From: a virus
IMG/VR virus record: IMGVR_UViG_2921643360_000001
Span: 1 to 64,000 of that record
DNA length: 64,000 nt
Reading direction: 5' to 3' (one strand)
A program made the translations under genes and the position numbers. Below, in pieces: positions 21,362 through 25,264 of this stretch; positions within the stretch are counted from its first letter, which is position 1, and each line of letters starts with the position of its first letter. Under the pieces are notes generated by a model that was given only the letters and a program-made list of their open reading frames with translations, had not been told where the DNA came from and ran no database searches.

Positions 21362-21582
21362 ACATCCGCGATATAGCAGGCATATCCAGCCAGCAGGAAC
21401 TGTACGAACTGGCGTCGAACTTCAATGTTCACGTCGGCAGCATGGACAAGCTGATCCGATTCGCCGGCGAACTCCAAAAGCGCGCCCTAGCCGACCACGC
21501 AAAGCGCGAGCTGGCGATGGATCGACTTGTTGAGGATGCGGAAGAGCTCGGACTTTATAACGAACCGGAGAAAGCAGCGTGA
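21358..21582 (+). CDS. hypothetical small protein
   Basis: 74 aa, coupled. Confidence 0.4.
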   Translation: MNIRDIAGISSQQELYELASNFNVHVGSMDKLIRFAGELQKRALADHAKRELAMDRLVEDAEELGLYNEPEKAA

Positions 21583-22199
21583 AGAAACTGATTCTCAAGA
21601 AACTGTTGCGGGTGCATTCCAACGCCTGCTCTACGCCCTACTACCACCTGTCCGGCTACATGCTACGCGACTGGATTCTCGGTTACCGCAGCCCGGATCG
21701 AAACGCCGATAACCCAGCATGGAAAGCGGGCTTTAGCCCGAAGTCGTCGGCGCTCTATCGCTGGATCTGCCGCAACGTCGCTATCCGCGCTCACACGATC
21801 CTGCGCAGCGACAACGACCGTCACTTGCACGACCATCCGTCGTGGTCGCTGTCGATCGTGCTGTCGGGCGGGTATTGGGAAGTGTGCGAGCCGACCGAAT
21901 GGGCGAAGCAATTCGGAGCAACGTACCGCCGAATCGTCGACGGACTCGACCGGGGAATGATCGACAACGAAGACAGTTACGAACTCGACTACGTTGCACG
22001 GTTCGGAATCTTCTGGCGCGGACCCGGCGCGATCGTCCTGCGTCGCGCTACTGACTTCCATCGCCTGATCCTGCCACGTGGCACGGTCGCCAAGTCAATA
22101 TTCGTCATGGGCAAGAAAACCAACAGTTGGGGCTTCCTGACGCCTAACGGCAAGGTCTACTGGCGCACGTATCTCGGTCTCGACAAGGAACAAGCATGA
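21579..22199 (+). CDS. hypothetical protein
   Basis: 206 aa. Contains a His-rich segment (HLHDHPSWSLSIVLSGGYWEV); the fold is not recognised. Confidence 0.45.
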   Translation: MKKLILKKLLRVHSNACSTPYYHLSGYMLRDWILGYRSPDRNADNPAWKAGFSPKSSALYRWICRNVAIRAHTILRSDNDRHLHDHPSWSLSIVLSGGYWEVCEPTEWAKQFGATYRRIVDGLDRGMIDNEDSYELDYVARFGIFWRGPGAIVLRRATDFHRLILPRGTVAKSIFVMGKKTNSWGFLTPNGKVYWRTYLGLDKEQA

Positions 22200-23266
22200 C
22201 TCTCGAACACTCGCAGACAGGCGGAATCGGAGACGTCAATTCCAGCGAGCGCGGCTCCGGAGCGAGATACAACACGGGCAAGGTTGCTATCGAGTTGATC
22301 CCTCTGCGTCTGATCGCGGAACAACTTGAACACGCCACGTCGGAAGACGATCCGCAAAACACGCTTATCGGCGCCCTGTGGAATCTCGCGTTGTTTCAGG
22401 AAGGCGGCGAGGCGCATTACCTGCGCGCGGCAATCGAAAACGTCGGATCGGCATGGGACGAATGCGCGGCGGTATTCGACTACGGGCGGAAGAAATATAG
22501 CAAGCGAGGTGATTGCACATGCAGTGCGGGCGATGCGGTACGACTGAACCTGAGCGGTTCTATCTATACACCTACAAAGGCGCAAACATCCGAAAGTTGC
22601 TCAAGGGATTTTGCAAGCCTTGCTACGACAAAGACCTCAAAGAGCGGAATCCAGGGTATCGGAAGCGACAAACCGAAAACCATCGAAAGTGGCTCGCAAA
22701 CCCTGAGAACAGAGAGCGAGCGCGCGCATCTGAACGGAAGCGATCTGCAAAGCGAAAGCTGGACCCAAATTACAAGGAGCAATCCAAGCTCTACCGAATC
22801 AAGCAGGAATACGGACTCACGCCTGAGCAGTACGACACCCTCATCGCGGCAGGATGCGCAATCTGCGGAAGCTTCGATCGATTGCATGTCGACCATTGCC
22901 ACGACAAAGGACACGTCAGAGCAGCGTTATGCCATTCCTGCAACATTGGCCTTGGATTTGTCGAAAGGCCTAACGGCTGGCTTGAGCGCGCACTCGAATA
23001 CCTGCGGCGTACATCAGACGCCGGGGCACACGGGTAACTGGAACTGGGCCAAGGGAATGGCGTGGAGCGTTCCCCTCGCCTGCGCTGCCCGCCATCTGAT
23101 CTTCGGCATGATGGCCGGTGAAGAACTCGACCCTGAATCGGGCCTGCCCCATCGCGGTCACTTCCTCTGCAATCTCGTGATGCTGCTGACGTTCATGCGG
23201 ACCTATCCGGAGGGAGATGATCGTCCGTCGCAATGGTTGGCTACGCCGACACAGGAAGCCGCATGA
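22196..23266 (+). CDS. MazG-like dATP/dGTP pyrophosphohydrolase-family protein interrupted by a 540-bp insertion (reading frame stays open)
   Basis: N-terminal 100 aa and C-terminal 75 aa look like protein. The central 180 aa are S/T-rich low complexity and correspond to an alternative frame of the nested HNH gene. Confidence 0.45.
   Translation: MTLEHSQTGGIGDVNSSERGSGARYNTGKVAIELIPLRLIAEQLEHATSEDDPQNTLIGALWNLALFQEGGEAHYLRAAIENVGSAWDECAAVFDYGRKKYSKRGDCTCSAGDAVRLNLSGSIYTPTKAQTSESCSRDFASLATTKTSKSGIQGIGSDKPKTIESGSQTLRTESERAHLNGSDLQSESWTQITRSNPSSTESSRNTDSRLSSTTPSSRQDAQSAEASIDCMSTIATTKDTSEQRYAIPATLALDLSKGLTAGLSAHSNTCGVHQTPGHTGNWNWAKGMAWSVPLACAARHLIFGMMAGEELDPESGLPHRGHFLCNLVMLLTFMRTYPEGDDRPSQWLATPTQEAA
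22519..23037 (+). CDS. endonuclease VII-family HNH nuclease
   Basis: LHVDHCHDKGHVRAALCHSCNIGLG is the EndoVII/HNH signature. GAGGTG RBS 8 nt upstream of ATG 22519. Lies wholly inside 22196..23266 in a different frame. Confidence 0.75.
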   Translation: MQCGRCGTTEPERFYLYTYKGANIRKLLKGFCKPCYDKDLKERNPGYRKRQTENHRKWLANPENRERARASERKRSAKRKLDPNYKEQSKLYRIKQEYGLTPEQYDTLIAAGCAICGSFDRLHVDHCHDKGHVRAALCHSCNIGLGFVERPNGWLERALEYLRRTSDAGAHG

Positions 23267-23406
23267 AACATTCCCTCATTCTTTTCCTGCTCCTTCTGCC
23301 GATCAGCCTTTCTCTCGCCACACGCCGCATCGGTGTGCGCAACTGGCAATACTGGGCGGTCGTTTTCACTGCGGCGATCATGTTTGAGGCGGGGAGATAC
23401 GTATGA
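23263..23406 (+). CDS. 47-aa small membrane protein
   Basis: MKHSLILFLLLLPISLSLA...; ATGA overlap. Confidence 0.3.
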   Translation: MKHSLILFLLLLPISLSLATRRIGVRNWQYWAVVFTAAIMFEAGRYV

Positions 23407-23747
23407 CCGACGAAGGCGAGATCAATATTTTTCGGGCGCTAGACTTCATCCGAGATCAAGCGCCCGCCTACGCCCAAGCCAAGGCCCAACGAGTCTACCT
23501 GGAGAATTTCAGGAAGAGCAAGAAGGCGCTGCTGATGCGCGCCGCGGAACTCAAGGGCCACAAGACGGCGGCCATCCAAGAGCGCGAGGCGTACGCAGAC
23601 GACGGCTATATCGAGATCCTTGCGGCACTCCAAGCGGCAACCGAGGAAGAAGAACGGCTGCGCTGGATGATCGTCGCGGCAGAGGCAAAGATTGAATGCT
23701 GGAGAACGATCGAGGCGAACCGGCGTGCGGAGGCGAGGACTCTATGA
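23403..23747 (+). CDS. hypothetical protein
   Basis: 114 aa. Confidence 0.45.
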   Translation: MTDEGEINIFRALDFIRDQAPAYAQAKAQRVYLENFRKSKKALLMRAAELKGHKTAAIQEREAYADDGYIEILAALQAATEEEERLRWMIVAAEAKIECWRTIEANRRAEARTL

Positions 23748-23881
23748 GCACCGCCACCTACTACTCAATCCTCGCCACGATCTGCCTCACGCGAGTGGTG
23801 CCTAGGTGGGCTTGCATCGCCAGCGGGATCGTCTATCTCGGGCTTGCGGTTGCTCTTGACATGGGGTGGTTTGCACGATGA
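23744..23881 (+). CDS. 45-aa small membrane protein
   Basis: MSTATYYSILATICLTRVV...; ATGA overlaps on both sides. Confidence 0.3.
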   Translation: MSTATYYSILATICLTRVVPRWACIASGIVYLGLAVALDMGWFAR

Positions 23882-24489
23882 ACCGTCTCCCCAGAAAAAA
23901 GAAGTGCGCAGCTTGCAAGACGGTTTTCGAACCAGCGCGCTCACTCCAGAAAGTGTGTAGCCCCAAGTGTGCCGCCGATTTTGCAGCGAAACAGAAAGCG
24001 CAGAAGTTGGCGAGGGCGAATCGGGAGGAGAGGAAGTCCCTCGCAGAGCGTAAAGCCAAGCTCAAGACTCGCCGCGAGTGGATTGCCGAGGCTCAGGCGG
24101 CATTTAACGCATACGTGCGTGAGCGAGATTACGGGAAGCCATGCATAAGTTGCGGCATCCCGCCGAGGGAAGCTTTCGGCGGCGCTGTTGATTGCGGTCA
24201 TTATCGAAGTGTTGGCAGCGCTTCTCAGCATCGCTTCAATTTAAAAAATTGCGCTGCACAATGTGTCAAATGCAATAGATATTTAGGATCTAATGCCGTC
24301 GAAATGAGGAAAGGACTTATAATTAAGATTGGTCTAGAAGAATTGGAAAATCTAGAGTCAGACCAGACCATCAAGAAGTTCAACATCGAATACCTCGCTC
24401 GCATCAAGCGAGTCTTCCTCAAGAAAGCGCGGCGAGCTAAGGCCCGGAGAAATCATGAGCATAACGAAATGGAATATGCAGCCGGGTGA
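23878..24489 (+). CDS. ninG: NinG / Rap-like protein
   Basis: Cys motifs of the lambda NinG family: CAACKT...CSPKC...CISCG...DCGHYRSVG...RFNLKNCAAQCVKCN. Confidence 0.8.
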   Translation: MNRLPRKKKCAACKTVFEPARSLQKVCSPKCAADFAAKQKAQKLARANREERKSLAERKAKLKTRREWIAEAQAAFNAYVRERDYGKPCISCGIPPREAFGGAVDCGHYRSVGSASQHRFNLKNCAAQCVKCNRYLGSNAVEMRKGLIIKIGLEELENLESDQTIKKFNIEYLARIKRVFLKKARRAKARRNHEHNEMEYAAG

Positions 24490-25264
24490 CCGGTTTTGTC
24501 GGCTGACCTTCAAGAGTGAAGGCGACGGTCGTAAAAATCGGGCGAGATATGGAATCTTCATCTGCGATTGTGGTACCGAGAAAGATGTGGCGTTCTCGCA
24601 CGTTGTTTCGGGAAAAATAAAAAGTTGTGGATGCCTCAAAGCGGAAGATGCCGGTAACAGGCTTCGCACTCATGGGATGCATGGTTCGCCAGAATATACG
24701 GTGTGGCAAGACATGTGGCAGCGCTGCACCAATCCAAAGACGGACAGATATCCGAATTACGGCGGACGGGGCATATCCGTCTGCGAGCGGTGGAAGTCGT
24801 TCGAGAACTTCTTTGCAGACATGGGTCAGCGCCCAGAAGGAACGTCGATAGAGCGAAAGGAGACGAACGGCAACTACGAGCCAAGTAACTGTCGTTGGGC
24901 CACGCCCAAGGAGCAAGGAAGGAATAGAACCAACAACCGTTTTATCGAATACAACGGGGAGAGGAAATGTGTTTCTGAATGGAGCGAGCAATTCGGCATA
25001 CCTCATTCAACGATTAACAATCGACTTCGGCTAGGGTTATCGTTAGATCAGGTTTTTGATGCAAGTGCAGATGGGTTTAAAAAGAAGTCAATCGTTGTCG
25101 ATGGTGTATCGAAGTGCACCAACGAATGGATGCGTGATGCTGGCATACCGATTTCGTCCTTCTATCACTTCCGGCGAAAGGGGCTGACTGAAGAAGAGAT
25201 CGTCAGGAAGTATCTGGCGCGCAAGCAACCCTACTCTCAAACGAATAACGAGGAAGCAGCCTAA
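24455..25264 (+). CDS. HNH-like (HNH_3-type, N-C-R-W-A-T element) homing-endonuclease-like protein, paralogue 1
   Basis: N-terminal CxCG...SCGC zinc ribbon; then HG..SPEYTVWQDMWQRC...YGGRGISVCERW...ADMGQRPEG.SIERKETNGNYEPSNCRWATPKEQGRNR. Clear paralogue of 51329..51952 and 58804..59472. Confidence 0.55.
   Translation: MSITKWNMQPGDRFCRLTFKSEGDGRKNRARYGIFICDCGTEKDVAFSHVVSGKIKSCGCLKAEDAGNRLRTHGMHGSPEYTVWQDMWQRCTNPKTDRYPNYGGRGISVCERWKSFENFFADMGQRPEGTSIERKETNGNYEPSNCRWATPKEQGRNRTNNRFIEYNGERKCVSEWSEQFGIPHSTINNRLRLGLSLDQVFDASADGFKKKSIVVDGVSKCTNEWMRDAGIPISSFYHFRRKGLTEEEIVRKYLARKQPYSQTNNEEAA

Follow-up and report, generated by a model that had tools for sequence, protein, structure and literature searches.

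How can a homing endonuclease gene settle inside a conserved coding sequence without destroying it? Such genes, when they occupy conserved genes, are thought to survive only within self-splicing introns or inteins, or by splitting the gene. The question is raised here by a locus in the virus record IMGVR_UViG_2921643360_000001, of which positions 1 to 64,000 (64,000 nucleotides, nt; hereafter, the window) were analysed. A 356-amino acid (aa) open reading frame (ORF) of dATP/dGTP pyrophosphohydrolase type (22196-23266) contains, in a different frame, an EndoVII-family HNH endonuclease gene (22519-23037); features are on the plus strand unless stated otherwise. On the evidence presented below, this is probably a homing-type element, comprising little more than the HNH gene, that is translated through as a disordered Ser/Thr-rich loop of the host protein.

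The host ORF matches the Pfam family PF18909 (dGTP_diPhyd_N, dATP/dGTP diphosphohydrolase domain; MazZ-like) with 65.8 bits, against a cut-off of 27, with profile positions 17-99 aligning to its C-terminal part, and its PHROG is dATP/dGTP pyrophosphohydrolase. An earlier note, made from the sequence alone, had called the host a dATP/dGTP pyrophosphohydrolase-like (MazG-like) protein. The first part of this label agrees with PF18909, whereas the MazG-like part has PF18909 as its sole basis, as fold and PDB searches gave no confirmation of a MazG fold. A Foldseek comparison of the full-length model with the PDB returned no match, probably because the disordered insert interferes, and PDB sequence and profile searches produced spurious EBNA1 matches or none.

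The nested gene encodes 172 aa, from ATG to TAA, and its product belongs to PF02945 (Endonuclease_7; 59.7 bits, cut-off 23.6, E 2.7e-16) and to the endonuclease VII PHROG (E 3e-32), being 100% identical to the NCBI protein BZM27_05910 of Paraburkholderia steynii (P0121). Its catalytic/zinc core is HVDHCHDKGHVRAALCHSCN (H123...N142; 22885-22944), and residues D125, H126, H128 and N142, together with the zinc residues C113, C116, C138 and C141, are invariant in an alignment of seven related nested HNH proteins. A Shine-Dalgarno sequence, GAGGTGA, lies 6 nt 5' of the ATG (22506-22512), and GAGG or GGAG is found at the same spacing before an ATG or GTG in eight of the nine PF18909-hosted loci for which DNA is available, the exception being L037. 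An alternative start, TTG at 22513, would give a protein of 174 aa.

The boundaries of the insertion were placed by aligning DNA and protein with uninterrupted alleles. In Burkholderia and Paraburkholderia, homologues of approximately 196 aa that share 78-84% identity with the flanks read ...FDYGRRKYAE-WNWAKGM... unbroken, and KKYAE|WNWAKGM is contiguous in 105 of 120 homologues among the matches listed, with all carriers having their insert at this position. In the window, the N-terminal host part, delimited by homologue alignment and structure prediction (residues 1-101; 22196-22498), ends in FDYGRKKY, with Y101 encoded by 22496-22498; the insertion spans 22499-23038, and the C-terminal part (W282-A356 and the stop codon; 23039-23266) opens with the invariant WNWAKGM. 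The sequence AAG TAT GCC GAA TGG AAC TGG of an uninterrupted allele corresponds to AAA TAT AGC ... AAC TGG AAC TGG in the window, 540 nt thus standing in place of 6 nt (GCC GAA), a net gain of 534 nt, or 178 codons. An insert-less P. tropica allele (in L075) would have its presumed target site around AAGTATGCCGAATGGAACTGG. Residues K100-Y101 and W282-N283-W284, which flank the insertion, are among the few invariant ones of the family, and the alignments indicate that, within this prophage PF18909 gene, the selfish element has inserted at the best-conserved motif, KKY|..WNWAKGM.

Apart from 20 nt upstream and 1 nt downstream, the whole insertion is occupied by the HNH ORF, whose stop codon TAA (23035-23037) overlaps host codons G280/N281. 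Host codons start at position 2 of the HNH codons, that is, in the +1 frame of the nuclease gene, and this frame translates without stops into a 180-aa segment with 33% Ser+Thr, versus 10% in the flanks, that includes the stretches AQTSESCSR and TESERAHLNGSDLQSESWTQITR. Joining the flanks without the insert raised the PF18909 score from 65.8 to 74.4 bits, restoring one contiguous domain. The coordinates and sequence statements that the earlier note gave for the 356-aa ORF, the EndoVII gene and its stop all hold. The same is true of its description of a Ser/Thr-rich centre coextensive with the nuclease gene, and of its placing of the break between KKY and NW.KGM, contiguous and invariant in the uninterrupted homologues aligned.

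A protein search with the whole ORF retrieved eight long but diverged homologues (290-371 aa, 38-52% identity), each with its frame open and an insert in this same position, and searching the host-frame insert against 1.84 billion cluster representatives added P0247 and P0248; the element is rare, with eight clusters in total among those representatives. Site, relative frame and open host frame were the same in 15 of 15 full-length PF18909-hosted inserts, examined as protein or DNA. Examples from both searches are biased, because they were found through the open ORF. Conversely, a sample anchored on the HNH gene is independent of the host ORF, because it was found through the nuclease; its eight loci are the window, L033, L035, L037, L038-40, L042 and the SNF2-hosted L005 and L043 (see below). 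In none of the eight does the +1 frame contain a stop, whereas the +2 frame contains 3-13; some of the loci have a G+C content of 42-47%.

Only five other called proteins resembled the HNH protein; for the three inspected (L033, L035 and L037), the HNH gene lies within a PF18909-type gene, at the KY|NW site, and the host frame is open even though gene callers had split the host. A DNA-level scan of metagenome contigs with the HNH alignment identified 34 loci. Those with at least 38% identity (L038-40, L041, which is the same as L033, L042 and L043) lie inside ORFs of 359-737 aa, in the +1 frame and with 0 stops, whereas at 37% identity or less all 27 complete loci are free-standing and have 1-14 stops in the +1 frame. 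In IMG/VR, a scan found HNH relatives at 40% identity or less only, none of them in a PF18909 gene. These distant relatives contain +1 stops in 16 of 18 cases (mean, 3.7 per 100 codons), those with an open frame being L005, nested in an SNF2 gene, and L022; the latter was considered as a nested case, but its 188-aa +1 ORF does not extend into a host gene and was treated as chance. A scan of genome contigs with the HNH alignment gave no confirmed locus, and blastn of the region against phages gave short matches to neighbouring genes only. Klebsiella phage matches described as 'endonuclease VII | DNA polymerase' were discarded, as there the nuclease gene is free-standing upstream of the polymerase and not nested. 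Gene callers treated the nested loci inconsistently (L001 and L004 versus L033, L035 and L037), reporting either the long host ORF without the nuclease or the nuclease with a split host; nested nucleases of this type will be under-counted systematically in protein databases.

The arrangement is found in a second host gene. In L005 (1426-3636 of IMGVR_UViG_3300032322_001562) and its metagenome relative L043 (875-3088 of Ga0214921_10000142), an HNH gene whose product is 34-38% identical to that of the window is nested, in the +1 frame, in the ORF of a phage SNF2-family helicase. The host ORFs, of 736 and 737 aa, respectively, are open throughout and match Pfam SNF2-rel_dom in two stretches, plus Helicase_C. 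Alleles of 602 aa, 97% identical to the L005 helicase, are missing exactly the 134-aa Ser/Thr-rich segment. This nuclease clade thus relies on the same trick, with the relative frame unchanged, in an unrelated host protein as well.

Could the host frame be open simply by chance? A stop in the +1 frame arises only from an NTA or NTG codon placed before a codon starting with A or G. Across the 180 codons of the window insertion, the host frame has 0 stops and the remaining frame has seven. When the HNH protein was back-translated with the window's own codon usage, 3.2 stops were expected and the probability of an open host frame was 0.011; with within-gene synonymous shuffles it was 0.025. CTC is used for all four Leu residues that precede K, K, T and I, whereas 61% of the Leu codons in local use would have produced a stop there, and the HNH protein contains a single Met. 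Pooling ten nested genes, Leu or Val before an A-starting codon is encoded by NTY in 29 of 29 instances, whereas NTG makes up 21% at other places in these genes. In the eight HNH-anchored loci, the shuffle probabilities were 0.025, 0.18, 0.69, 0.26, 0.31, 0.12, 0.15 and 0.40, with a product of about 2e-6; individually these values are conservative, because shuffles retain an already biased codon pool, and they are not independent, because the loci share ancestry. Together, these codon patterns indicate that the open host frame in the window and its relatives is not due to chance.

The two frames of the overlap have evolved differently. In every pairwise comparison, identity was higher in the HNH frame than in the host frame (0.69 versus 0.47 for the window and L001), and position 3 of the HNH codons was the most variable in every pair, which points to ordinary purifying selection on the nuclease. 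The interior of the host-frame insert is poorly conserved (25-47% identity), and the host frame across the insert seems mostly just to be kept open. In the C-terminal host part, all family-invariant residues are kept among the interrupted alleles, and host-frame differences between the window and L038 at codon positions 1, 2 and 3 are 0.29, 0.22 and 0.59, a pattern indicating that the downstream host part is under purifying selection. Since there is no conserved start before WNW, this part would be translatable only by ribosomes that cross the insert.

Decay and movement of the element have also left traces. Three homologues (P0042, P0048 and P0067) carry, at the same site, stubs of 39-74 aa (41 aa in P0067) that have lost the nuclease core (HVDH...) by deletion; P0048 additionally has a stop in the HNH frame. 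In all three, the host frame is still open and in register, as would be expected when a homing element degenerates within a gene whose function is still required. Inserts of P0039 and P0045 are 99% identical at the protein level, although their flanks are only 61% (N-terminal) and 81% (C-terminal) identical, which in our comparison is the signature of a recent lateral transfer of the element; mobility is also indicated by the 97% identity between SNF2 alleles that carry and lack the insert, and the nearest host relatives of the window are all insert-free. Transfer between diverged alleles is thus indicated by the alleles themselves, and cleavage of an insert-less allele would be the step presumed to initiate it.

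AlphaFold2 (AF2), run on the full 356-aa ORF with a 121-sequence alignment, produced a confident helical host domain, with predicted local distance difference test (pLDDT) values of 93-98 for residues 31-100 and of 90-98 for residues 291-340. The insert lies between a helix of residues 87-102, whose end is at KKY, and the next long helix, which begins with residue 291. The insert ends (residues 101-120 and 251-280) reached pLDDT values of 52-67 and the middle mostly 30-45 (below 46), and the host-frame insert is consequently predicted to be disordered.

The ends of the insert are set apart by four host-frame residues. A Cys-x-Cys at the 5' end and a His-x3-Cys at the 3' end are present in 18 of 18 PF18909-hosted inserts read, among them the three dead stubs; the window residues are C107 and C109 (22514-22522, overlapping the spacer between Shine-Dalgarno and ATG as well as the HNH ATG), and H266 and C270 (22991-23005). 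Their codons vary synonymously in the host frame (TGC/TGT, CAC/CAT). In a codon analysis of eight loci, whose HNH proteins are 37-69% identical, HNH Ala158 is GCA in 8 of 8 and is followed by C or T even though the next HNH residue varies (L/Y/R), so that the host His remains CAC or CAT. Likewise, HNH residue 162 is always NTG followed by C, even where Leu is replaced by Val, and the host Cys is kept. Invariant third positions are limited to 7 of 136 in the HNH genes of these loci. Changes that are silent in the host frame yet alter residues in the nuclease frame suggest that selection acts, at the level of the protein, on four potential metal ligands at the base of the loop. The SNF2-hosted elements have a Cys-x2-His at the 5' end and a Cys-x-Cys at the 3' end. 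It is conceivable, as a tentative extension of the reading favoured here, that this EndoVII clade is a portable, self-neutralising insertion module, its +1 frame encoding a passenger loop under selection. The tetrad would then act as a putative zinc 'staple', shutting the loop at its base and rejoining the severed motif. If so, the element would join introns and inteins as a third class of mobile insertion that is phenotypically silent, and could move between unrelated host genes.

The homing-type element that we consider probable would operate as follows. It would stay in at both the RNA and the protein level, with the nuclease made from its own Shine-Dalgarno and ATG within the host mRNA, and ribosomes that start at the host ATG would cross it in the +1 frame of the nuclease gene. 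The product would be a 356-aa host protein with its halves joined by a loop of about 180 aa, Ser/Thr-rich and largely disordered. Selection would keep the frame free of stops, through NTY codons for Leu and Val before A-starting codons and through almost no Met, and we propose that the insertion is phenotypically tolerable because the frame is kept stop-free. Presumably, the substrates of the nuclease are alleles without the insert, in phages or prophages that are co-resident; once these are cut, the element would be copied into them by repair. The specificity of this cleavage, the synthesis and activity of the 356-aa protein and the lack of splicing are what we infer from the sequences.

Several considerations weigh against this proposal. 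Read-through translation and host enzyme activity are both deduced, not observed, and it is not obvious that the enzyme would tolerate a loop of 180 aa at this place, since the insertion splits an invariant motif. Most of the protein-level examples are subject to ascertainment bias, having been found via the open ORF; the shared ancestry of the loci deprives the per-locus probabilities of independence, and the within-gene shuffles for the GC-rich loci are individually unimpressive (0.18-0.69). Moreover, the open frame could serve to avoid transcriptional polarity on downstream genes, and not the upkeep of the enzyme.

The earlier note had left two options, a frame-preserving invasion by a homing endonuclease that yields a long disordered insert, and a split gene; the former is supported by the comparative evidence. 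In the latter, the N- and C-terminal parts would be separate polypeptides that come together, a situation known from phage genes that free-standing homing endonuclease genes have split. Such an arrangement might be suspected from the behaviour of gene callers, which cut three loci into an HNH gene and a C-terminal PF18909 fragment, and from an in-frame ATG (M288) 20 nt past the HNH stop. It is nevertheless very unlikely, as no locus has a host-frame stop to end an N-terminal fragment, there is no conserved start before WNW, and translation from the sole nearby start would leave out the invariant W-N-W-x-K-G motif. Relative to the junction, the HNH stop is also placed differently from locus to locus, and coupling of termination and reinitiation is thus not conserved. 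About equally unlikely is that the insertion inactivated the host, and that the long ORF reflects G+C content and the low frequency of +1 stops. The +1 frame is intrinsically the easiest to keep open, with some 1-3 stops expected versus about 9 in +2, and the free-standing L022 is open in this frame apparently by chance. However, this explanation is largely refuted by the open frame in 8 of 8 HNH-anchored loci, including those with 42-47% G+C, by stop-avoiding codons at 29 of 29 at-risk sites, by the conservation of host residues and coding pattern downstream of the insert, and by stubs that remain in frame.

Removal of the insert at the RNA level, for instance as a degenerate group I intron with a core overlapping the ORF, would make the open frame incidental. 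HNH genes are frequently borne by introns (PMC3943268), the stubs have lost neither end of the insertion, as could be the case for a minimal splicing element, and a 22-nt imperfect inverted repeat pairs 22471-22492 with 22981-23002. On the other hand, no Rfam family, including group I and group II introns, matched the region of the insertion at E ≤ 10, the minimum free energy is weaker than that of shuffled sequence (z = +1.38), and only 21 nt lie outside the ORF, in agreement with the earlier judgement that a group I intron is unlikely. Inspection by eye for pairing between the insert ends, or for sequestration of the ribosome-binding site, revealed no convincing complementarity, only one weak inverted repeat. 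Additionally, if the RNA were spliced, there would be no reason for the frame to be open, for lengths to be divisible by three or for codons to avoid stops, all of which are seen, and the variation in the end motifs (TGC/TGT, CAC/CAT) is synonymous in the host frame and does not follow base pairing. We thus regard splicing of the RNA as improbable, if slightly less so than the split or dead gene. Least likely of all is splicing of the protein by a non-canonical intein with a homing endonuclease in a different frame, comparable to the cyanobacterial dnaX intein. The earlier note had excluded an intein because the nuclease is in the wrong frame; this argument fails, since out-of-frame intein endonucleases exist (bioRxiv 10.64898/2026.09.14.751524), but its conclusion stands on other grounds. 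Residues suited to an intein are present, with Ser, Ala or Thr after KY and Cys near the N-terminal end of the insert. However, the host-frame insert matches no Hint/intein or other Pfam family at E ≤ 1, and its interior is of low complexity, with 25-47% identity and pLDDT values of 30-45. It ends in ...GHTGN, without a terminal His-Asn, the residue that follows is Trp (or Asn) and not Cys, Ser or Thr, and stubs of 39-41 aa, far too short for a Hint fold, are still kept in frame.

The closest parallel to the window locus is the ShiLan domain, an out-of-frame 'hidden' HNH insertion in DNA methylase genes of mycobacteriophages, described computationally only (Arsenault, Gosselin, Gogarten 2025, PMC11855218; first noted in PMC9957025), and for which retention of the insert in mature mRNA and protein is itself undemonstrated (PMC11855218). 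Both are insertions at a conserved site of a phage gene, without host-frame stops, that contain a nearly coextensive HNH gene in another frame, starting about 20 nt into the insert and stopping within its last bases. In both, the host-frame product is rich in Ser/Thr/Ala and predicted to form a loop, there is no intron or intein signature, the distribution is patchy and the inserts are less diverged than the hosts. In the DNA of ShiLan gp65, the hidden HNH gene is in the same relative frame as in the window, with host codons starting at HNH codon position 2. An ending in 'TAAC' common to both was dismissed as coincidental, since related loci end in TAGC, TGAC, TAAA, TAAG or TAAT and the stop position varies.

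The nucleases, however, belong to different His-Me finger families, HNH_3 (PF13392) in ShiLan and PF02945 in the window (BLASTP E 2.1). As they are unrelated in sequence, the window locus is an independent instance that has architecture, not ancestry, in common with ShiLan. The hosts also differ, being PF18909 (SNF2 in relatives) in a Burkholderiales prophage versus methylases in actinophages, with bacteria of another phylum involved, and a clear Shine-Dalgarno and ATG in the window contrast with the leaderless GTG initiation, without a ribosome-binding site, proposed for ShiLan (PMC11855218). In-frame decay remnants and a conserved host-frame Cys/His tetrad further distinguish the window element. 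Other mycobacteriophage methylases, Tarkin_98 and Tasp14_61 (PMC9957025, supplementary file 3), have a different long insert, starting ...SASIYKQTIKTLEERYGSARCDC..., that may be another translated-through element.

The dnaX intein (bioRxiv 10.64898/2026.09.14.751524) resembles the window locus in that an in-frame insertion carries a homing endonuclease gene in an alternative frame that overlaps it, and in that purifying selection acts more strongly on the endonuclease frame than on the host frame. Its host-frame product is a true self-splicing intein, whereas the window insert has no splicing domain and is apparently retained. I-HmuI, I-TevIII and mobE (PMC2988022) and F-CphI of cyanophage S-PM2 (PMC6083498) are free-standing or intron-borne EndoVII/HNH homing endonucleases. 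As is presumed for the window nuclease, they are EndoVII-type His-Me finger nucleases that serve phages in homing and have a highly conserved coding target. All four are located between genes, in self-splicing introns or in positions that split the host, and none is known to be read through in another frame.

The window locus and its relatives offer the best-supported comparative evidence so far for a third solution to the survival of homing endonuclease genes in conserved genes, as proposed in one 2025 computational paper. To ShiLan they add, independently, a second nuclease family, at least two unrelated host genes, a codon-level signature and decay in frame, with a comparative sample that is wider and partly unbiased. 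The phenomenon is thus recently described and still unproven, and the locus is not categorically new but a clean case that generalises it and that brings up a specific hypothesis on structure. It also represents an unusually long (>500 nt) dual-coding region for a bacterial genome, and a systematic trap for annotation, in which callers either miss the nuclease or split the host, both of which were seen. Since Paraburkholderia steynii can be obtained, as can related strains with insert-less alleles, the system lends itself directly to testing.

Other features of the host gene and its surroundings are the following. At its C-terminal end (23200-23266), the host protein is around 19 aa shorter than its closest uninterrupted homologues (...PSQWLATPTQEAA versus ...PSQWLRDAAMTEHAARE...), and it is without the C-terminal helix of the model for P0006, the P. 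tropica homologue. The Rfam scan of 21500-24000 produced only a sub-threshold twister-sister match (23734-23854, minus strand; 16.3 bits versus a gathering threshold of 34, E 5.7), outside the insertion and on the opposite strand, that is most likely due to chance. The neighbouring genes, which include NinG, other small phage genes and a second HNH gene, correspond to the early region of a lambdoid prophage, and the gene order downstream of the host gene differs from that of the P. tropica prophage (L075). The second HNH endonuclease gene (24455-25264; 269 aa, PHROG 374/3377, no Pfam match) is free-standing and of a different kind, and has 35 nt in common with the 3' end of the NinG gene (23866-24489). 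Immediately upstream of the host gene is a 206-aa ORF (21579-22199) that matches PHROG 4786, 'cysteine dioxygenase' (E 1.3e-30), and no Pfam family; its stop overlaps the start of the host gene (ATGA), suggesting that both are translationally coupled.

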